Positions 10,185 to 53,250 of a stretch of 64,000 nt of DNA are shown here, one piece after another; the stretch's first letter is position 1; every line of letters begins with the position of its first letter. Both the position numbers and the translations under genes were made by a program. Below the pieces are notes generated by a model that saw only the letters and a program-made list of their open reading frames with translations, was not told the origin of the DNA and made no database searches. Source of the stretch: an uncultured Eubacteriales bacterium (GTDB lineage Bacteria; Bacillota; Clostridia; Christensenellales; CAG-1252); the NCBI GenBank assembly GCA_902797685.1, contig CADBTQ010000007.1, positions 7,290 through 71,289 of the forward strand, in the 5' to 3' direction.

Positions 10185-11042
10185 ATGATACTGTTAGACG
10201 GCAAACAAACGGCAAAAGCCGTAAGAGAGAAGATCAAAATCTGCGCCCAAGAGGCGATGGCTAAGTGGGGCGACCCCATTACGTTGGCGGTGATACTGGT
10301 CGGGGAAGACCCCGCCAGTCAAGTGTACGTGGGCAACAAGATCAAAGGTTGCGCCCAAGTGGGATTCGAGTCCCGCAAGGTGGTGCTGCCCGAGACGGCG
10401 AGCCAAGAGGAAGTCGCCGCGTCTATCCGCGCCCTCAACGCCGACCCCTCGGTACACGGGGTGCTGTTGCAGCTGCCTCTGCCCAAGCATCTCGACGAGC
10501 AGGCGTTGCTCGCCTTGATCGACCCCGACAAGGACGTGGACGGACTGCATATCGTACAGCGGGGCAGACTGTTTTGCGGCTTGCCTTCTCTACTCCCTTG
10601 CACCCCCTTTGGGATCATGAAACTGTTGGAGACCTACGGGATCGATCCCGCGGGCAAGCGCGCGGTCGTGATCGGGCGCAGTAATTTGGTGGGCAAACCC
10701 TTGGCGATGATGCTCCTCAACGCCAACGCCACCGTGACCGTGTGCCACAGCCGCACCCTCGATCTACCCTCGGTGACCAAAGAGGCGGATATCCTCGTCG
10801 CGGCGGTGGGCAAACCCAACTTTGTGACGGCGGACATGGTCAAAGAAGGGGCGATCGTCATCGACGTGGGCATCAACCGCGTGGACGGCAAATTGGTGGG
10901 AGACGTCGATTACGACGAGGTCGCCCCCAAGTGTTCGTATATCACTCCCGTGCCGGGCGGCGTGGGACCCATGACCGTGACCATGTTGCTCGCCAACACC
11001 CTGAAGGCGTACGAAAACGTACACGCGATTGCCGCGCAATGA
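10185..11042 (+). CDS. folD: Bifunctional methylene-THF dehydrogenase / methenyl-THF cyclohydrolase
   Basis: 285 aa: [17 protein letters not shown]...[14 protein letters not shown]...[13 protein letters not shown]. Adjacent to fhs. Confidence 0.92.
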
Positions 11043-11292
11043 TATAGGCAAAGCCTATGATATACCCTTGGGGATATGATATAGACCTTCGGTCAATGAT
11101 ATACGGCTACGCCGCATGATATACGACCTACGGCCGTATTGCGGATAAAATCGAATAGATGGACTATTTGTCAAATCAAATAGACACCAAAATATCCCTC
11201 GAGGACTCGTCCCCGAGGGATATATCATATTCGAGCGCCGCTCGAATATATCATACCGCTTTGCGGTATATCATAGGCGCAGCCTATCTCAT
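11039..11292. repeat. Modular hairpin-array element, copy A1 (ATGATATA left arm / conserved core / TATATCAT right arm)
   Basis: ATGATATA occurs at 11039, 11057, 11076, 11096 and 11116, each followed by a different 3-5 bp GC stem with a 3-nt loop. The core contains TATTGCGGATAAA...TTTGTCAAATC...AATATCCCTCG. TATATCAT occurs at 11221, 11247 and 11267 (degenerate at 11285), separated by longer hairpins. Homologous copies lie at 48175-48447 and 52959-53250. Confidence 0.85.
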
Positions 11293-11305
11293 TGTGTCGA
11301 AGGCA

Positions 11306-14028: not shown

Positions 14029-14137
14029 GCGTATCCTCCATAAAAAGGTTTTTCTTCATTATACCATATCAAAAAAACAAAAAACAAATCCGCTCGCCCC
14101 CATCTCGCAAAAAAAGTGTGAAAAATGTGGAAAAATC

Positions 14138-14171
14138 GGGGGGGGGGGGGGGTACTTGAAAAAAAAAAAAA
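14138..14171. repeat. Back-to-back homopolymer tracts: G15 (14138-14152) and A13 (14159-14171)
   Basis: Counted directly in the tldD/lipoprotein divergent intergenic region. The A tract starts inside a TTGAAA -35-like hexamer (14156-14161). Confidence 0.9.
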
Positions 14172-18660: not shown

Positions 18661-18834
18661 AGTCTGCTCCTTAACGTGGGATAGTCCCATTATAAAACAA
18701 TCGCGCGGGCACTGTCAATAGCCAAAACGACCTCTTGCGCACCACCTTAGCGCGGTTTGAGGGGTCGGGAGCGTAGAAAAGGTTATCCACTTGTCAACAT
18801 TAACAAAAATTAATAATTTGCCTTTATCACCAAT

Positions 18835-18863
18835 TTGACTACCAAAAAAGGCTGTGTTACAAT
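18835..18863 (+). promoter_or_regulatory. Putative str-operon promoter TTGACT-N17-TACAAT
   Basis: Hexamers read directly, 55 nt upstream of the L7Ae-like gene. Confidence 0.5.
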
Positions 18864-18917
18864 GTCTTGTGCTTGTAGGAAGTACAAGTATGTATCATAA
18901 TGCATTGAGGTGTACTT

Positions 18918-19181
18918 GTGTCTACGGGCGTCAATGATTTAATTGCTAGTAACCCCGATCGACTTGTCGGGCTGAAACAGGTCGTGAGAGGTATTGCCGA
19001 CGGCAGTGTATGGTGTGTCATAGTGTCGTTGGATTGTGACGATTTTGTCAAACAAAAGGTGGAGGAAGCCATCGGCAACCGCCAAGTGGGGCTCAAATAC
19101 TTCGATACCAAGTCGAAGTTGGGCGCCTTGGTGGGGATCGAGGTGCCCGCCGCCGTAGTGGGACTGCTTCGTCACGACTAG
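18918..19181 (+). CDS. L7Ae-family ribosome-associated protein (YbxF/RplGB-like)
   Basis: 87 aa with a GTG start. It sits immediately upstream of rpsL, as ybxF does in Bacillus. Sequence ..LVGLKQVVRGIADGSVWCVIVSLDCD..KLGALVGIEVPAAVVGL. Confidence 0.7.
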   Translation: MSTGVNDLIASNPDRLVGLKQVVRGIADGSVWCVIVSLDCDDFVKQKVEEAIGNRQVGLKYFDTKSKLGALVGIEVPAAVVGLLRHD

Positions 19182-28011: not shown

Positions 28012-28548
28012 TTACAGCAAAGGAATGGTCGCCAAGTATTTGACGTCGGGGCGATCTTTGGCGGGACCTTCGGCGAGGACGAACGCCTTGCAGTAGATCT
28101 CTCCGCCCGCCAATTCCACGATCTTTTCCAATCCCAACAAGCTGCCGCCCGTGGATACCACGTCGTCGAGGATGGCGACCTTTTTGCCCTTGAGCAGATC
28201 GGCGTCGTGTTTGGAGAGGTAGAGGGTCTGTTGGTGCCCCGTGGTGATGGACTTGACCGTCGCCTCGATACCGTCTTGCATATACAACTTTTTGGTCTTG
28301 CGGCATACCGCATAATAGCGTTGTCCCAACTCGCGCGCGGTCACGTGCGCCAGTTGCAAACCCTTGCTTTCGGCGGTGAGAATGATATCGCAACCCGCCA
28401 CCAGTTTTGCCATCTCTTTGCCGCAATGCTCGGTCAACTCGGTGTCGCCGTGCAAGTTAAAAAAGCAAATATTGACCCCGTTGGGCAAGGGCAAAATGGG
28501 CAATTCGGTGTGGAATCCTTTGATATCGAGGGGATAAAAGTCACTCAT
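28012..28548 (-). CDS. Phosphoribosyltransferase-family protein (adenine/xanthine PRT-like)
   Basis: PRPP-binding motif KKVAILDDVVSTGGSL; 178 aa. Confidence 0.7.
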   Translation of the reverse strand: MSDFYPLDIKGFHTELPILPLPNGVNICFFNLHGDTELTEHCGKEMAKLVAGCDIILTAESKGLQLAHVTARELGQRYYAVCRKTKKLYMQDGIEATVKSITTGHQQTLYLSKHDADLLKGKKVAILDDVVSTGGSLLGLEKIVELAGGEIYCKAFVLAEGPAKDRPDVKYLATIPLL

Positions 28549-28586
28549 GTTGGTTCTCCTTGTCGTCCCAAAGGGACGGATAGTTT

Positions 28587-28713
28587 ATTGCTGACGCAAT
28601 GCGATATATCTGTTGTCACAGATGCGATATATCCGCAGTCTCGGATGCGATATATCTGTTGTCACAGATGCGATATATTGCTAACGCAATGCGATATATC
28701 TTGCAAGCAAGAT
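28587..28713. repeat. Hairpin array B-left: 5 x GCGATATAT linkers alternating with 12-14 nt hairpins (period 21-23 bp)
   Basis: GCGATATAT occurs at 28601, 28624, 28647, 28670 and 28691. The hairpins are ATTGC-tgac-GCAAT, ATCTGT-tgtc-ACAGAT (twice), ATCCG-cagtct-CGGAT, ATTGC-taac-GCAAT and ATCTTGC-aa-GCAAGAT. Confidence 0.85.
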
Positions 28714-28743
28714 GTAGTGGGTCGCTTTGCTCCGAAAGATCGG

Positions 28744-29103
28744 TCAGTTTTCGCCGTTCTTTTTGGCAGTAGTCACGGAAGCGATCAATTTCCTACGTAT
28801 CGTACCGCACTTATTGAACAGCGATTTGTAACGATCGGGCGATAGCGCGCCGGTCTTGTACAATATCTCCAACCAATACTCCGTTTCGTAGCACTCCTTA
28901 AGCGCGATTTCCATTTTGTTGATAAAATCGGCGCGACTTTGTGCATAAAACCCTTCGTGTGCGTTGGCGCCGATGGAAGAACAGGCGCGAAGCAGTTGGT
29001 TGACGAAGATAGCCTTCCCTTGGATGTGTTCACAAAGCATTGTCAACTCCACCGTCAAATCAACCGCCAACTCTTTGATCGTTTTGTCTTGAGTCATCGC
29101 CAT
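28744..29103 (-). CDS. Four-helix-bundle protein (23S rRNA intervening-sequence protein / Avd family)
   Basis: 119 aa: ..VNQLLRACSSIGANAHEGFYAQSRADFINKMEIALKECYETEYWLEILYK.. matches the remembered family pattern (QLxRAxxSIxANIxEG...DFxxKxxIAxKExxETxYWLxLL). The start was placed at MAMTQDK. The 183-aa ORF-track version runs into the right hairpin array. Confidence 0.78.
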   Translation of the reverse strand: MAMTQDKTIKELAVDLTVELTMLCEHIQGKAIFVNQLLRACSSIGANAHEGFYAQSRADFINKMEIALKECYETEYWLEILYKTGALSPDRYKSLFNKCGTIRRKLIASVTTAKKNGEN

Positions 29104-29121
29104 CTTTCCATTATCCACAGC

Positions 29122-29228
29122 ATCTCCCTTAGGAGATATATCGCGCCGAAGGTATATCGCACGCAAAGCGTATCTCGCAAATCCGCTCTGCGGATTTATC
29201 TCGCCGCAAGCGTGCTCTGCACGCTTGC
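29122..29228. repeat. Hairpin array B-right: AT(A/C)TCGC linkers (reverse complement of the B-left linker) alternating with hairpins
   Basis: The linker occurs at 29138, 29154, 29172 and 29198. The hairpins are ATCTCC-ctt-AGGAGAT, ACGC-aaa-GCGT, AAATCCGC-tct-GCGGATTT and GCAAGCGTGC-tct-GCACGCTTGC. The last abuts the proS stop codon. Confidence 0.8.
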
Positions 29229-30680
29229 TTAATACGCTTTGGCGAAGTAGATCAATTTCCCTTTTCCGTTTAGGGGCTTGCCGCAGCAAACGCATTTGTC
29301 CCCGATGGGGGTTTGGTCAAAGGGCATACAGCGGGAACTCGCGGCGGTCAACTCTTTGATCTTGTCCTCGCAGGCGCGCTCGCCGCACCACATGGTACGC
29401 GCGAAGTGGCCGCTATCCACGGCGGCTTTGAGTTCGTCCACGTTGGCGACGTCCACGATATGGCTATCGCGGAAAGCGGTCGCCTTGACGAGCATATGGC
29501 GTTGCACGTCGTCAAGCAACTTGGCGATCTCGTCCGCCAACCCGTCCAAAGACAAGGTGTCTTTGCCGAAAGTGTCGCGGCGGGAGACCACGCACACGTT
29601 ATTTTCGATGTCGCGGGGACCGATCTCCACTCTGAGGGGCACGCCCTTCATCTCCCACTCGTTGAACTTCCAACCCGGAGATTGATCGCGATCGTCCAAT
29701 TCGACGCGGATGCCCGCCCCTTTGAGCAAAGCGGTCAACTCTTGCGCCTTTTCCAGCACGCCCGCCTTGTGCATCGCCACGGGGACGATCACCACTTGGA
29801 TGGGCGCGACCTTGGGGGGAAGCGCCAAACCGCGTTGGTCGCCGTGCGCCATTACCAGTGCGCCGATCAAACGGGTAGACACGCCCCAGCTGGATTGGTA
29901 GGGGTATTTGAGGGTGTTGTCCTTGTCAAGGTATTTGATATCGAACGCCTTGGCAAAGTTTTGTCCCAAGTTGTGCGAAGTGCCGCTTTGCAAGCTCTTG
30001 CCGTCCAACATCATCGCCTCGATGGTGTAGGTGGCGTCCGCACCCGCAAACTTTTCCTTATCCGTTTTGCGACCGGTCAGCATGGGGATAGCGAGCACGT
30101 TTTCGGCAAACTCGCGATACACCTCGAGCATTTGCAAGGTCTCTTCTTGCGCCTCTTCGGGGGTGCGGTGGGCGGTGTGACCCTCTTGCCACAAAAACTC
30201 GCTCGTCCTAAGGAAGGGGCGGGTGGTCTTTTCCCAACGTACCACGTTGGCCCATTGGTTGATCTTGACGGGGAGATCTCTCCACGACTGGATCCACTTG
30301 GCGTACATGGTGCCGATGATGGTCTCGCTGGTGGGGCGCACCACCAATTTTTCGGGCAACTCCTCGTTCCCGACGTGGGTCACCAAGGCGACTTCGGGCG
30401 CAAACCCTTCCACGTGCTCCGCCTCTTTGGTGAGGAAGCTGTACGGGATAAAGAGGGGGAAGTATGCGTTTTGATGTCCGGTCGCTTTGAAGCGAGCGTC
30501 CAATTCGTGCTGAATATTCTCCCACACGGCGTAACCGTAGGGACGGATGACCATCGTGCCCTTGACGGGGCCGTAGTCCACCATGCCCGTCTTAAGGACG
30601 ACGTCGGTGTACCATTGGGGGAAGTCCGCCTGCATGTCGGCGATCTCTTTGACAAAGGATTGTTCTTTTTTGTCTGCCAT
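29229..30680 (-). CDS. proS: Proline--tRNA ligase (archaeal/eukaryote-like short form)
   Basis: 483 aa: ..FPQWYTDVVLKTGMVDYGPVKGTMVIRPYGYAVWE.., ending ..YFAKAY. The start was placed at MADKKEQ behind AAGGAG. Confidence 0.92.
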   Translation of the reverse strand: MADKKEQSFVKEIADMQADFPQWYTDVVLKTGMVDYGPVKGTMVIRPYGYAVWENIQHELDARFKATGHQNAYFPLFIPYSFLTKEAEHVEGFAPEVALVTHVGNEELPEKLVVRPTSETIIGTMYAKWIQSWRDLPVKINQWANVVRWEKTTRPFLRTSEFLWQEGHTAHRTPEEAQEETLQMLEVYREFAENVLAIPMLTGRKTDKEKFAGADATYTIEAMMLDGKSLQSGTSHNLGQNFAKAFDIKYLDKDNTLKYPYQSSWGVSTRLIGALVMAHGDQRGLALPPKVAPIQVVIVPVAMHKAGVLEKAQELTALLKGAGIRVELDDRDQSPGWKFNEWEMKGVPLRVEIGPRDIENNVCVVSRRDTFGKDTLSLDGLADEIAKLLDDVQRHMLVKATAFRDSHIVDVANVDELKAAVDSGHFARTMWCGERACEDKIKELTAASSRCMPFDQTPIGDKCVCCGKPLNGKGKLIYFAKAY

Positions 30681-30823
30681 AGTCAACTCCTTGTTGTTTG
30701 CGTTTATTGCGTACTCATTATACACGCCCGCGCCCAAAAAGTAAATAAATTATCTTTGTTTTTGTGGTATATCCTCGCAAAGTGTTGTATAATGGGGTTA
30801 CGATAGTTCGCAAGGAGAACAAT

Positions 30824-34208: not shown

Positions 34209-35888
34209 ATGGACTACAAGAGAGAGATCGCCAAACTATTTGCCCCTCACCTCACCGAGGAGGAGGCGTACAGCCTGCTCGTGCCCCCCAAGGATATCGC
34301 CATGGGGGATATTTGCTTGCCCTGTTTTCGCTTGGCAAAGACCATGCGTATGTCTCCCGTCGCTATCGCCGACAAGTTGGCGGCGGAATTGACCTTGCCC
34401 CCCTTCGTCGCCGAAGTCAAATCGGTAGCGGGCTACCTCAATTTCAAGTTCAGTTCGCACGACTTCGCCTCCACCGTGTTGGGCAACGTGTTGTCCCAAG
34501 GGGCGGTTTACGGCAAGTCGGACTTGGGCGCAGGCAAGACCGTGTGCATCGATTATAGCTCCATCAATATCGCCAAACCCTTCCATATCGGGCATTTGTC
34601 CACCACCGTGTTGGGCGCGGCGCTCTACCGGCTGTATAAGGAGTTGGGCTACAACGTCGTGGGCATCAATCACCTGGGGGATTGGGGCACCCAATTCGGC
34701 AAGTTGATAGTCGCCTATCACAAGTGGTCGTCCAAAGAGGAGATCGAGCGTGGCGGCGTGCGCAAGTTGGTGGAGATCTACGTCAAGTTCCACCAAGAGG
34801 CGGAAGACCATCCCGAGTTGGACGAGGAAGCGCGCTCTTGGTTCAAAAAGTTGGAAGACGGGGACGAGGAAGCGGTGTCTTTGTGGAAGTGGTTCAAGGA
34901 GATCACCCTCGCGGACGACGTGCCCATTTACGACCGCTTGGGGGTGCATTTCGACTCTTACGCGGGCGAAAGCTTTTACAACGACAAGATGGACGCCGTG
35001 GTGGACGAGTTGGCTGCCAAGGGGTTGCTGACCCTCTCGGACGGGGCGCAGATCGTGGAACTGGACGGCATGCCCCCCTGCATCATCCGCAAGTCGGACG
35101 GGGCGACTCTGTACGCCACCCGCGATTTGGCGGCGGCGTTTTACCGCAAGTCCACCTACGACTTCGCCAAGTGTCTGTACGTGGTGGCGTATCAACAAAA
35201 CCTCCACTTCAAGCAATGGTTCGAGGTGGTACACAAGATGGGCTACGAGTGGTACAAGGACTTGGAGCACGTGGCGTTCGGTATGGTGAGTTTGGAGGAC
35301 GGCGCCATGAGCACCCGCAAGGGCAACGCCGTGTGGCTGACGGACGTACTGGATAAGGCGGTGGAGAAAGCCGCCGAGATCATCAAGCAAAAGTCCCCCG
35401 ACCTCGACGATCCCAACGAAGTCGCCGAGATGGTGGGCGTGGGTAGCGTCATCTTTTCGGCACTCATCAACAACCGTATCAAGGACATCGAGTTCCGCTA
35501 CGACAAGATCCTCAATTTCGACGGGGAGACCTGCCCCTACGTGCAATACACCCACGCCCGCTGTGCGTCTTTGCTCGCCAAAGCGGGGGAGTGGCAAGCG
35601 CCCCGAGATTACGGCGCCCTCTCGGACGACGTCGCCAAGGACATCCTGCGCAATTTGGAGAGGTACCCCTCTCTGCTCAGGGAAGCCGCCGACAAAAACG
35701 AGCCGAGCATGATCACCCGCCACGTGGTGGATCTGTGCAAGTTGTACAACAAGTTCTACTTTGACAACAAGATCCTCACCGCTCCCGACGGCGTGCGCGA
35801 AGCCCGCTTGGCGTTGACTTTAGCGGTCAAGACGGTGATGGAAAACGGCATGGCGATCATCGGCATCCGCTTGCCGGACAAGATGTAG
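34209..35888 (+). CDS. argS: Arginine--tRNA ligase
   Basis: 559 aa: ..SSINIAKPFHIGHLSTTVLG.. (HIGH) and ..MSTRKG.. (KMSK-like). Confidence 0.93.
   Translation: MDYKREIAKLFAPHLTEEEAYSLLVPPKDIAMGDICLPCFRLAKTMRMSPVAIADKLAAELTLPPFVAEVKSVAGYLNFKFSSHDFASTVLGNVLSQGAVYGKSDLGAGKTVCIDYSSINIAKPFHIGHLSTTVLGAALYRLYKELGYNVVGINHLGDWGTQFGKLIVAYHKWSSKEEIERGGVRKLVEIYVKFHQEAEDHPELDEEARSWFKKLEDGDEEAVSLWKWFKEITLADDVPIYDRLGVHFDSYAGESFYNDKMDAVVDELAAKGLLTLSDGAQIVELDGMPPCIIRKSDGATLYATRDLAAAFYRKSTYDFAKCLYVVAYQQNLHFKQWFEVVHKMGYEWYKDLEHVAFGMVSLEDGAMSTRKGNAVWLTDVLDKAVEKAAEIIKQKSPDLDDPNEVAEMVGVGSVIFSALINNRIKDIEFRYDKILNFDGETCPYVQYTHARCASLLAKAGEWQAPRDYGALSDDVAKDILRNLERYPSLLREAADKNEPSMITRHVVDLCKLYNKFYFDNKILTAPDGVREARLALTLAVKTVMENGMAIIGIRLPDKM
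35829..35888 (+). repeat. Left copy of a perfect 60-bp direct repeat (last 60 nt of argS including the stop)
   Basis: AAGACGGTGATGGAAAACGGCATGGCGATCATCGGCATCCGCTTGCCGGACAAGATGTAG is identical to 37444-37503. Confidence 0.95.
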
Positions 35889-37443: not shown

Positions 37444-37503
37444 AAGACGGTGATGGAAAACGGCATGGCGATCATCGGCATCCGCTTGCCGGACAAGATG
37501 TAG
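37444..37503 (+). repeat. Right copy of the 60-bp direct repeat (orphan argS 3' fragment)
   Basis: Identical to 35829-35888. Confidence 0.95.
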
Positions 37504-37655
37504 TAACGCCAAAGCGAAATGATGTTTCGCCTAATGGCGAAGTGATGTATGCGCCAAGCGCAAATGATGTTATTGGCTTGCGCCAAAAGTGATGTTTTCT
37601 TTGCAAATTGCAAAGAAAGTGATGGAAGCCGCACAGCGTGCGGCTTTTTTGATGG
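37504..37655. repeat. Hairpin array C with recurring RTGATGK motif
   Basis: ATGATGT at 37519, GTGATGT at 37542, ATGATGT at 37564, GTGATGT at 37589, GTGATGG at 37619 and TTGATGG at 37649. Interleaved with GCGAA/TTCGC, GGCG/CGCC and GCGCAA/TTGCGC stems and the 21-bp palindrome TTCTTTGCAA-a-TTGCAAAGAA. Confidence 0.7.
37628..37650 (+). terminator. Rho-independent terminator, probably the native argS terminator
   Basis: GCCGCAC-agc-GTGCGGC followed by TTTTTT. Confidence 0.7.
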
Positions 37656-48174: not shown

Positions 48175-48447
48175 ATGAGATAGACCCTCGGTCAATGATA
48201 TATCGGCAAGCCGATATATGATATACGCCTTAGTCGTATTGCGGATAAAGCTATCAGACGTGTCATTTGTCAAATCGATCAAACACCACAATATCCCTCG
48301 GAGGCTTTGCCCTCGAGGGATATATCCTGTTCGAGCGCGGCTCGAATATATCATACCGCAGTGCGGTATATCATAGGCAAAGCCTATCTTATTGCCTTTG
48401 GCTTGCCAACGGCAGTGCGGTATATCGTATCACACGTGATCTATCAT
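48175..48447. repeat. Modular hairpin-array element, copy A2
   Basis: Same core (TATTGCGGATAAA..TTTGTCAAATC..AATATCCCTCG) and right-arm hairpins as A1 and A3. The left arm has 3 hairpin modules. Confidence 0.85.
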
Positions 48448-52901: not shown

Positions 52902-52958
52902 GCTTGCGTCGAATCGGTACACAGCCGCCAACACACCTGCGGCAGTGATTGCTTCACA

Positions 52959-53250
52959 ATGATATAGCCTATGGCTATGATATATCCCTTTGGGATATGA
53001 TATAGACCTTCGGTCAATGATATACGACCTATGGTCGTATTGCGGATAAAACTATTAGATAGGTGATTTATCAAATCAATCAAACCACACAATATCCCTC
53101 GGAGGCTTTGCCCTCGAGGGATATATCCTATTCGAGCCCTGCTCGAATATATCATACCGCTTAGCGGTATATCATAGGCACTGCCTATCTCATTGCCTTT
53201 GGCAAGCCATAGGCAGTGCGGTATATCATATCCCGTGGGGGATATATCAT
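52959..53250. repeat. Modular hairpin-array element, copy A3
   Basis: ATGATATA modules with ATAGCC-tat-GGCTAT, CCC-ttt-GGG, GACC-ttc-GGTC and CGACC-tat-GGTCG. The core and right arm are nearly identical to A2. Confidence 0.85.

Follow-up and report, generated by a model that had tools for sequence, protein, structure and literature searches.

We describe here an accessory cassette of approximately 680 bp in a 64,000-nucleotide stretch of DNA from an uncultured Eubacteriales bacterium (contig CADBTQ010000007.1 of GenBank assembly GCA_902797685.1), the whole of which we call the window. The cassette is a co-oriented insertion in the operon spacer between proS and a phosphoribosyltransferase gene. 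It carries a small gene for a four-helix-bundle protein of the PF05635/TIGR02436 family, and its two arms are oppositely oriented arrays of one 7-nucleotide (nt) repeat, GCGATAT, the copies of which are separated by hairpins of arbitrary sequence. The class to which it belongs is widespread: PF05635 genes from five or six bacterial phyla are bracketed by, or abut, inverted arrays in which a lineage-specific heptamer is repeated approximately four to five times, and elsewhere in those genomes the same heptamers occur as dispersed inverted pairs with no gene. Judging from these sequence patterns, we lean on balance towards the reading that the cassette is embedded in its operon much as intervening sequences (IVSs) are in 23S rRNA, and that its protein would bind its own heptamer repeats.

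The initial annotation of the window had described a four-helix-bundle gene with hairpin arrays on either side, at 28587-29228, and this layout is confirmed (Table 1). The left flank was said to hold five linkers with a period of 21-23 nt; GCGATATAT indeed matches exactly at five plus-strand sites (28601, 28624, 28647, 28670 and 28691; spacings of 23, 23, 23 and 21), and a sixth copy lies on the minus strand. These six matches in 64 kb compare with 0.31 expected, and six were reached in 0 of 100 dinucleotide-preserving shuffles. Tandem Repeats Finder describes the left array as 4.6 copies of period 23 (score 129). On the right flank, the four linkers of opposite orientation that had been noted between hairpins are found as GCGA(T/G)AT on the minus strand at 29138, 29154, 29172 and 29198. 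The view of the two flanks as inverted, modular arms is borne out by these pattern matches and by the alignment of both arms to the Rfam family Gut-1, discussed below. The spacers between the linkers are all short, perfectly paired palindromes.

Read along the gene strand, the order of parts is the proS stop codon, a capping hairpin, the upstream arm (D arm), a hairpin with the Shine-Dalgarno sequence, the gene, the downstream arm (I arm) and the ribosome-binding site of the phosphoribosyltransferase gene. The I arm has six hairpins, five of them, between and outside the linkers, in the unit order A-B-C-B-A' and then a sixth, CTTGC-AA-GCAAG (28700-28711). Since the I arm and the junction hairpin precede the ribosome-binding site of the phosphoribosyltransferase gene, that gene has the I arm as its 5' leader. 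Five codons before the ATG of the four-helix-bundle gene, an in-frame GTG at 29118 with the Shine-Dalgarno sequence AAGGGAG is an equally plausible start, and a 99%-identical database protein is 124 amino acids long. The location between the phosphoribosyltransferase gene and proS is confirmed by open reading frame (ORF) and domain annotation, with Fic, GNAT, phosphoribosyltransferase, prolyl-tRNA synthetase (ProRS) and M20 peptidase genes as the neighbors within approximately 3 kb. Promoter and terminator scans of the gene strand found no sigma-70-like promoter and no same-strand terminator around the cassette, which we read as probably part of the proS operon.

Table 1. Coordinates and layout of the cassette, of the gene-less elements in the window, and of arrays at related loci
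Feature	Locus	Position	Strand	Remarks
proS	window	29229-30737	-	same strand as four-helix-bundle gene
Capping hairpin hp0 (GCAAGCGTGC-AGA-GCACGCTTGC)	window	29206-29228	-	10 bp; begins at the first base after the proS stop codon
D arm (upstream), four heptamer linkers	window	29133-29204	-	sub-threshold Gut-1 match, 25.0 bits
D-arm linker GCGAGAT	window	29198-29204	-	
D-arm linker GCGAGAT	window	29172-29178	-	
D-arm linker GCGATAT	window	29154-29160	-	
D-arm linker GCGATATAT	window	29136-29144	-	
D-arm hairpins between linkers	window		-	AAATCCGC/GCGGATTT, ACGC/GCGT, ACC/GGC
Last D-arm hairpin (AUCUCC-UAA-GGGAGAU)	window	29122-29137	-	3' half holds Shine-Dalgarno sequence for GTG 29118
PF05635/TIGR02436 four-helix-bundle gene, Avd-like fold	window	28744-29103	-	119 aa from ATG; 124 aa from GTG
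I arm (downstream), five ATATATCGCAT linkers on gene strand	window	28587-28711	-	sub-threshold Gut-1 match on + strand, 25.4 bits
Junction with phosphoribosyltransferase gene	window	28549-28586	-	hairpin CCGTCCC-UUU-GGGACG (28563-28579), then ribosome-binding site of downstream gene
Adenine phosphoribosyltransferase-like gene	window	28012-28548	-	same strand as four-helix-bundle gene
Gene-less A-element	window	11030-11295		ATGATATA linkers left, TATATCAT right, conserved core
Gene-less A-element	window	48175-48395		as above
Gene-less A-element	window	52955-53190		as above
D-core-I upstream of gene	L143, L144, L147			
D-core-I upstream of gene	L146			linkers ACGATAT/ATATCGT
D-gene-I	L148			50% identity; linkers GTGATAT/ATATCAC
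D arm	L149			47% identity; linker ACGATGT
Gene-less pair	L197 (Nostoc flagelliforme pNFSY06)	18753-18960		the three L197 pairs enclose 70-140 nt
Gene-less pair	L197	26239-26425		
Gene-less pair	L197	37399-37533		

The site of the cassette is empty in related species. In loci L153 and L155-158, from species whose phosphoribosyltransferase is 79-81% identical, proS lies 59-77 nt from the phosphoribosyltransferase gene; the element is therefore an accessory insertion, in keeping with the earlier description of a cassette placed in an ordinary intergenic region. Two loci of the same species (L151 and L152, with an identical phosphoribosyltransferase protein) have an I arm of three units, A-B-A', against five, A-B-C-B-A', in the window. 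The difference is a 46-nt two-unit indel between duplicated units and shows, at strain level, that the arrays gain and lose units by slippage or recombination. A scan for target-site duplications gave a single convincing case, the 8-nt direct repeat GCGCGACA at L033. Among the approximately 34 other distinct elements listed, most have direct matches of 4-7 nt at their ends, and L043 has one of 9 nt in AT-rich flanks.

PF05635/TIGR02436 is a very large family with members in many bacterial phyla and frequently many copies in one genome, and to our knowledge Avd of the diversity-generating retroelements (DGRs), a scaffold bound to structured RNA, is its only understood member. The assignment of the window protein to this 23S-IVS/Avd family holds by profile and by structure. 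PF05635 matches with an E-value of 8.6e-23 (81 bits, cut-off 33.8) and TIGR02436 with 5.3e-26 (91 bits, cut-off 24), both nearly over the full length. The Protein Data Bank (PDB) entry 2RLD is found by sequence (E-value 2.7e-22). The AlphaFold2 model has four helices (pLDDT 91.3), and a Foldseek search with it returns 2RLD (40% identity, TM 0.82-0.90) and, as the next best kind of match, 2GSC. It also returns Avd, both from the Bordetella phage DGR (4DWL; TMq 0.78-0.80, rmsd 1.8 Å, 14% identity) and as the Avd chains in two entries of the DGR ribonucleoprotein, 8UB7 and 8UBE; over all Avd matches TMq is approximately 0.7-0.8 and identity 14-17%. A sequence profile did not detect Avd in the PDB, and the fold search alone found it. 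Five chains are present in each of 2RLD, 2GSC and 4DWL. The resemblance to Avd (4DWL; 8UB7/8UBE) thus lies in the four-helix-bundle fold and the five chains per entry; the differences are the 14% identity and the lack, in the cassette, of an adjacent reverse transcriptase, template or variable repeats. No reverse transcriptase was found among the genes annotated within approximately 3 kb of the cassette or in the homologue contexts. Given its absence within that 3 kb, the window protein is not a DGR Avd. PADLOC returned no match.

Relatives of the protein at 70-78% identity number in the thousands, many of them on very short contigs. In all 13 independent Clostridia contexts with readable upstream DNA, arrays lie within approximately 60 nt of the start codon; for comparison, arrays occur in 5 of the approximately 25 intergenic gaps of the window. 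A related species keeps the D-gene-I layout at the syntenic locus (L001; 84% identity), with different hairpin sequences. In two unrelated contexts (L002-L011 and L012-L021) the gene directly follows a complete D-core-I element, and its ribosome-binding site comes after the last ATATCGC linker. A protein-based metagenome scan added further contexts (L143-L149; see Table 1). The clade typified by L149 comprises proteins that are 88-98% identical across more than 120 clusters and occur in at least three contexts, always with ACGATGT arrays. In this clade a strong terminator precedes the array, and a possible promoter, TTGCAC-17-TACAAT, scores below the threshold of the tool. As first proposed for the window, two arms enclose the gene there and in Nostoc, L001 and L148; most close relatives, in contrast, have it just downstream of a complete inverted pair. 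In one homologue (L233) the flanking linkers are ATGATAT/TATATCAT, the type found in the gene-less A-elements of the window; this was the sole informative locus in a scan of viral contigs for ATGATATA arrays, which otherwise returned mostly AT-rich giant-virus repeats.

Synteny of an rlmD/rumA-like 23S rRNA methyltransferase gene, the element and the four-helix-bundle gene is seen in several Clostridia species (L012, L030, L073, L083, L131 and L139). Such synteny points to long vertical inheritance of this locus and not to frequent movement. The L083 copy of the gene is truncated, the last linker being fused to mid-ORF sequence.

The same arrangement, with plainer arms, is found in other phyla. 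We searched annotated plasmids and phages by tblastn and examined 13 loci of Cyanobacteriota, Bacteroidota, Chloroflexota, Spirochaetota and Clostridia, namely in Nostoc, Aulosira, Planktothrix, Gloeocapsa, Euhalothece, Chondrinema, Bernardetia, Chlorohelix, Treponema and Monoglobus. At 12 of the 13, plain tandem heptamers form inverted arms of approximately 4.7 copies on the two sides of the gene, so that the link between gene and arrays recurs both here and in the 13 of 13 Clostridia contexts. Examples include (TAATTCG)4-gene-(CGAATTA)4, (CAATTCG)4 with (TTGCGAA)4, and (AATTCAA)4 with (TTTTGAA)5. The inverted repeat reaches 30-37 nt in five loci, compared with a maximum of 10-13 after shuffling, and in the Nostoc relatives the arms are continuous inverted repeats of 30-37 nt. 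The genes at the plasmid loci are co-oriented in operons, between RND pump subunits, helicase and methylase, or hsdS and hsdR. Proteins that are at least 64% identical have a common heptamer or a 1-nt variant of it, and more distant ones have different heptamers, with two exceptions; by this comparison the heptamer sequence mostly follows the protein lineage.

A 50-kb stretch of a Nostoc flagelliforme plasmid (L197) gives an example of how the arrays are organized within one replicon. Nearly all strong period-7 arrays in it are one arm of an inverted pair, with approximately 4.7 copies (33 nt) per arm; an ATTCTGA array (35434-35462) is unpaired. Two of the pairs flank four-helix-bundle genes, with different heptamers for the two paralogues, and three pairs are gene-less. 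The first gene-less pair has the heptamer of the four-helix-bundle gene that lies 800 nt upstream, and the AATTCAA type is shared with a paralogue (L188) that a different plasmid of this strain carries. Other plasmid loci show further peculiarities. On two Nostoc plasmids (L187 and L196, 331-1227) the cassette lies between ORFs of 76 and 92 amino acids, both of which run into the heptamer arrays. The 76-amino-acid ORF has a weak N-terminal match to C5 DNA_methylase and the 92-amino-acid ORF has none; at these loci a coding sequence may have received the cassette. On the Treponema saccharophilum plasmid pTS1 (L185), approximately 35 purine-rich heptamers (GGTGAAA, GCGGAAA, etc.), followed by the complement CTCTCCG, lie upstream of the gene at approximately 670-1000, and CTCTCCG-type heptamers appear again downstream of it at approximately 1360-1460.

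Heptanucleotide repeats of this plain kind have been described before. The STRR repeats of heterocystous cyanobacteria are reportedly heptanucleotide repeats. Others are the TAACTGA repeats of Beggiatoaceae (PMC4679880) and the GGGAATC repeats of Xanthomonas, which form approximately 70 convergent inverted pairs per genome and were treated solely as possible G-quadruplex sequences (PMC4692102). In Xanthomonas a four-copy GGGAATC array overlaps the annotated start of XCC0516, a protein on which the paper does not comment (PMC4692102, supplement). XCC0516 is PDB entry 2GSC, the fold and profile relative of the window protein. These three repeat classes resemble the arms described here in having a 7-nt unit in few copies per intergenic site, with convergent inverted pairs frequent in Xanthomonas; unlike the window arrays, their copies are directly tandem with no hairpin spacers, and a protein partner was never proposed in those papers.

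In the gut Clostridia the corresponding repeat class is Gut-1, described in 2010 as a motif of human-gut metagenomes and as a stand-alone small RNA, with neither context nor function (Weinberg et al. 2010, PMC2864571). Both arms of the cassette align to the full length of the Rfam model (RF01706, model positions 1-77), each pointing towards the gene. Their scores (25.4 and 25.0 bits) are below the 50-bit gathering threshold, and they have the Gut-1 trait of at least three short hairpins with a conserved, purine-rich 7-nt linker between them. The sole above-threshold Rfam match in the window is also to Gut-1 (53.8 bits, 52957-53028) and coincides with the left arm of a gene-less A-element. Rfam found no rRNA in the window. 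When the Gut-1 seed alignment is viewed with its flanks, a second, inverted arm is seen outside the model, and one seed, BAAZ01025322.1 (the same sequence as L183), continues into a homologous gene. True Gut-1 matches lie straight upstream of homologous genes on two faecal scaffolds (L182, 65 bits; L183, 59 bits). The Rfam motif Gut-1 corresponds to one arm of the hairpin-spaced version of the element in gut Clostridia. The likeness thus consists in tandem short hairpins with conserved 7-nt linkers and in an above-threshold A-element arm of the same design in the window; the differences are the linker, GUGAAAU in Gut-1 versus GCGAUAU here, and a model that spans one arm only.

The A-elements of the window share the design of the cassette, as had been proposed, in that both have arms of inverted linkers. 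They carry ATGAUAUA arrays around a core, CGTATTGCGGATAAA...GTCAAATC. Their left arms have five, three and four units. In the right arms, the three copies agree fully (100% identity) in their stems and linkers and differ wholly in all three hairpin loops. One more array of the window (37494-37650) consists of a single arm with six hairpins and A(A/G)TGATGT linkers, closed by a strong, terminator-like hairpin that has a T run. The 11-mer CAAGATGTAGT with which it starts recurs at the inner end of the cassette array (28708-28718), and these are the only two exact copies in the window. A clustered regularly interspaced short palindromic repeat (CRISPR) array, taken as repeats of 23-47 nt that are separated by unique, non-palindromic spacers and accompanied by cas genes, was rejected for the cassette: the conserved unit is only 7-11 nt, the spacers are palindromes of 9-20 nt, and there are no cas genes in the flanks. 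Elsewhere in the window, a run of 15 G (14138-14152) stands beside short A-rich tandem repeats (14070-14136).

Arrays without the gene are the rule. Scanning genome-wide for three GCGATAT linkers, we found 120 loci, mostly in metagenome-assembled genomes of Oscillospiraceae, Acutalibacteraceae, Ruminococcaceae and other Clostridia, and only about 9 of the 120 have the gene (approximately 90% lack it within 8 kb). Independence of arrays from the gene, which had been named as an argument against a link between them, is thus true of most arrays, but nearly all sampled genes do carry arrays. Gene-less inverted pairs are commoner than gene-bearing ones. The commonest form is a compact, gene-less element of approximately 175 nt with four D and four I linkers; single arms exist too, with no clear bias of orientation relative to genes by crude ORF calls. 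The polarity of the composite element is fixed, running from a variable capping hairpin through four linkers with hairpins and a core to four inverted linkers with hairpins. Nearly all related elements have a counterpart of hp0, with an unrelated sequence, ahead of the first linker. Among the 31 related elements with a callable upstream ORF, 20 follow a co-oriented gene that ends within approximately 120 nt. The recurrent neighbors of the arrays, besides the four-helix-bundle gene, are the rlmD/rumA-like methyltransferase and generic ABC ATPases only; no transposase-like family or RAYT recurs beside them. In one array-dense locus (L059, 1732-7960), four I-type arrays with ATATCGC linkers lie within 8 kb, each preceded by a second repeat family of CCCTAC/GTAGGG palindromes. 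At least three of these arrays lie 30-40 nt upstream of a start codon, and for the fourth the locus ends before any start.

Do these elements act as RNA or as DNA? In an alignment (A1) of 22 related elements (columns 3-14, 20-26 and 98-109), a stretch of the core is complementary to the first linker and the 5' half of hairpin 1. The resulting long-range helix is 97% paired, with compensatory changes in 6 of 12 pairs, and was equalled in 0 of 500 shuffles. The competing local hairpin 1 is supported too, with 94.8% paired. This three-way covariation reflects either a structural switch between two alternative folds or a short direct repeat on both sides of hairpins 2-4. Across 494 non-redundant hairpins, 1564 of 1589 stem pairs are Watson-Crick, with 6 G:U, 7 A:C and 12 other mismatches, a pattern that is unusual for a single structured RNA. 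A comparison of G:U with A:C counts as an indicator of the transcribed strand was uninformative, the stems being nearly all Watson-Crick. The loops are polar: D-arm loops have the form C[TNC]G or C[TNNC]G, those of the I arm the form C[GNA]G or C[GNNA]G, and this mirrored polarity identifies the two arms as true mirror modules. When the region (683 nt) is folded as RNA, the arms do pair in the minimum-free-energy fold (z = -4.25), as the initial annotation had asked, but they do so because the linkers are complementary, and this alone explains the pairing. The arm helix is interrupted by hairpins. A strict RNA ladder, in which each linker would pair with its mirror linker, was rejected: GAGAT variants face ATATC in the window, L079 and L030, and since the linkers do not covary, such a ladder is unsupported as a selected structure.

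It is tempting to combine these features into a single scheme. The protein would assemble like its structural relatives with their five chains per deposited entry, probably as a pentamer, and would bind heptamers, approximately one per subunit, on single-stranded nucleic acid, either the transcript or transiently single-stranded DNA. The targets would be its own cassette and the gene-less copies. The hairpins would serve as spacers that keep the heptamers exposed, and the inverted arms would fold the transcript back around the ORF, in the manner of 23S rRNA IVSs, which would let the cassette sit in operons with no promoter or terminator of its own. The gene-less copies would be targets or derivatives. 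The usual four to five heptamers per arm agree with a five-subunit binder, though longer arrays exist.

PF05635 ORFs reportedly occur in the 23S rRNA IVSs of Leptospira and Coxiella, a class of element that RNase III excises from the transcript, and the parallel with the cassette is close: the protein family is the same, the ORF is bracketed by inverted repeats, and it is co-oriented in a transcribed operon with no transposase. In contrast to IVSs, which are located in helix 25 or 45 of the 23S rRNA and have one continuous stem, the cassette lies between protein-coding genes and its arms are 7-nt repeat arrays interrupted by hairpins. These comparisons suggest that operon-embedded cassettes form a broader class, of which the 23S rRNA IVSs are one special case.

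Several points weigh against an IVS-like cassette with a heptamer-binding protein. Everything beyond the anatomy is inferred. The window protein is just mildly basic (pI 8.3). The gene lies inside the pair in some cases and downstream of it in others, and the rlmD-element-gene locus is syntenic across species. The repeat number is not always close to five (approximately 35 in Treponema, 12 in Euhalothece, 9 in Bernardetia), and the correspondence of heptamer and protein has exceptions (L190/L195 and L148/L183). Linker variants such as GAGAT show no position-by-position covariation between the arms. Finally, the near absence of G:U pairs and the mirrored loops would fit a function at the DNA level, or on both strands, at least as well as a function in one RNA.

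Two other views of the elements deserve consideration. In the first, the arrays are cis-regulatory RNA, i.e., structured leaders or trailers (the Gut-1 small RNA or a riboregulator) that act on stability, processing or translation; alternative pairings would form a switch, and the protein would be the regulated gene or an autoregulator. We think this unlikely. The Gut-1 matches of both arrays, the position of the elements just 3' of co-oriented genes and the GNRA-like loops of the gene-proximal arm are as expected of such RNA, and so are a ribosome-binding site or start codon 10-20 nt past the last linker, the window Shine-Dalgarno sequence inside the last hairpin, and the three-way covariation, in which linker 1 and the 5' half of hairpin 1 pair locally or with the core. 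However, G:U pairs are virtually absent, with no strand bias, and the gene-distal arm has the complementary loop types and so is optimized on the other strand. In the L149-type clade, moreover, a terminator comes before the array, which may lie upstream of the gene's own promoter. Presence and absence between species and the many gene-less copies are left unexplained by regulation.

The second view is that the element is mobile at the DNA level, similar to MITEs or REPINs. The inverted multi-site arms would be recognition sites for a recombination or replication factor, and the protein a DNA-binding specificity factor, comparable to RAYT with REPs or to the end-binding sites of Tn7 and Mu. The empty site in related species and gene-less derivatives that outnumber the gene-bearing form are in its favor. 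Near-identical proteins (88-98%) in at least three unrelated contexts, mostly on short contigs, point the same way, as do the perfect palindromic stems, the mirrored loop polarity and the convergent inverted array pairs of Xanthomonas. REP/BIME elements with RAYT genes, and REPINs, are said to follow a similar logic. As in REPINs, inverted copies of a dispersed palindromic repeat stand on either side of a single gene, intergenic regions hold further inverted doublets that lack the gene, and each hairpin has a conserved short motif beside it. In contrast, RAYT is an HUH/Y1 transposase and the flanked gene here is PF05635, and the cassette has a conserved linker with a variable palindrome and an orientation biased relative to the upstream gene. 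That strong bias speaks against a mobile element, as does the syntenic rlmD locus. No nuclease, transposase or recombinase is found in or near the elements, target-site duplications are not consistent (L033 alone has its 8-nt direct repeat), and the four-helix-bundle family has no known catalytic motif. We regard mobility of this kind as rather improbable.

It is very improbable that the arrays are generic intergenic fillers, such as REP/BIME-like stabilizers or terminators, with the gene among them by chance. Arrays are frequent in the window, which has 5 such loci in 64 kb, some genomes are dense in them, as L059 with its four arrays in 8 kb, and approximately 90% of GCGATAT arrays have no gene within 8 kb, but chance would hardly place arrays at the gene in 13 of 13 and 12 of 13 independently sampled loci from several phyla. 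Neither would it produce precise junctions, a heptamer that tracks the protein lineage, or two paralogues on one Nostoc plasmid flanked by two different heptamers. We give almost no credence to a DGR Avd accessory subunit or a type III toxin-antitoxin-like pair of repeat RNA and protein, for which the Avd-like fold and, as in ToxIN, a repeated RNA array beside a small protein gene would speak: there is no reverse transcriptase or template/variable repeat beside the gene (its neighbors are proS, phosphoribosyltransferase, GNAT and Fic), identity to Avd is 14%, Avd is missed by sequence profile and PADLOC has no match, the repeats are 7 nt with variable hairpins and not identical units of approximately 36 nt, and the protein has no endoribonuclease fold.

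The preferred reading, an operon-embedded, IVS-like cassette whose protein may bind its own heptamers, can be extended to the family as a whole. In this bolder form, which we hold to be possible and still doubtful, PF05635 proteins would be heptamer-specific, probably pentameric binders matched to their lineage. They would act in trans as the partners of orphan repeats, and the cassette would seed gene-less copies with no conventional transposase. The components are already known: PF05635 ORFs in rRNA IVSs, Gut-1, heptamer repeats and a REPIN-like logic. In a literature search we found no paper that ties PF05635 genes to flanking repeat arrays.

The anatomy ties these orphan repeats into one testable scheme, in which a small protein is encoded between inverted arrays of its own heptamer. 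The repeat classes concerned have been described with neither a function nor a protein partner, Gut-1 since 2010, the cyanobacterial heptamers since 1990 and the Xanthomonas GGGAATC repeats since 2015. If the scheme is true, the Gut-1 arrays of gut Clostridia, the STRR-type repeats of cyanobacteria and GGGAATC of Xanthomonas would each gain a partner, and a gene with its inverted arms would constitute a self-contained "IVS for operons." The function of a large orphan protein family, together with that of several orphan repeat classes, becomes directly testable.

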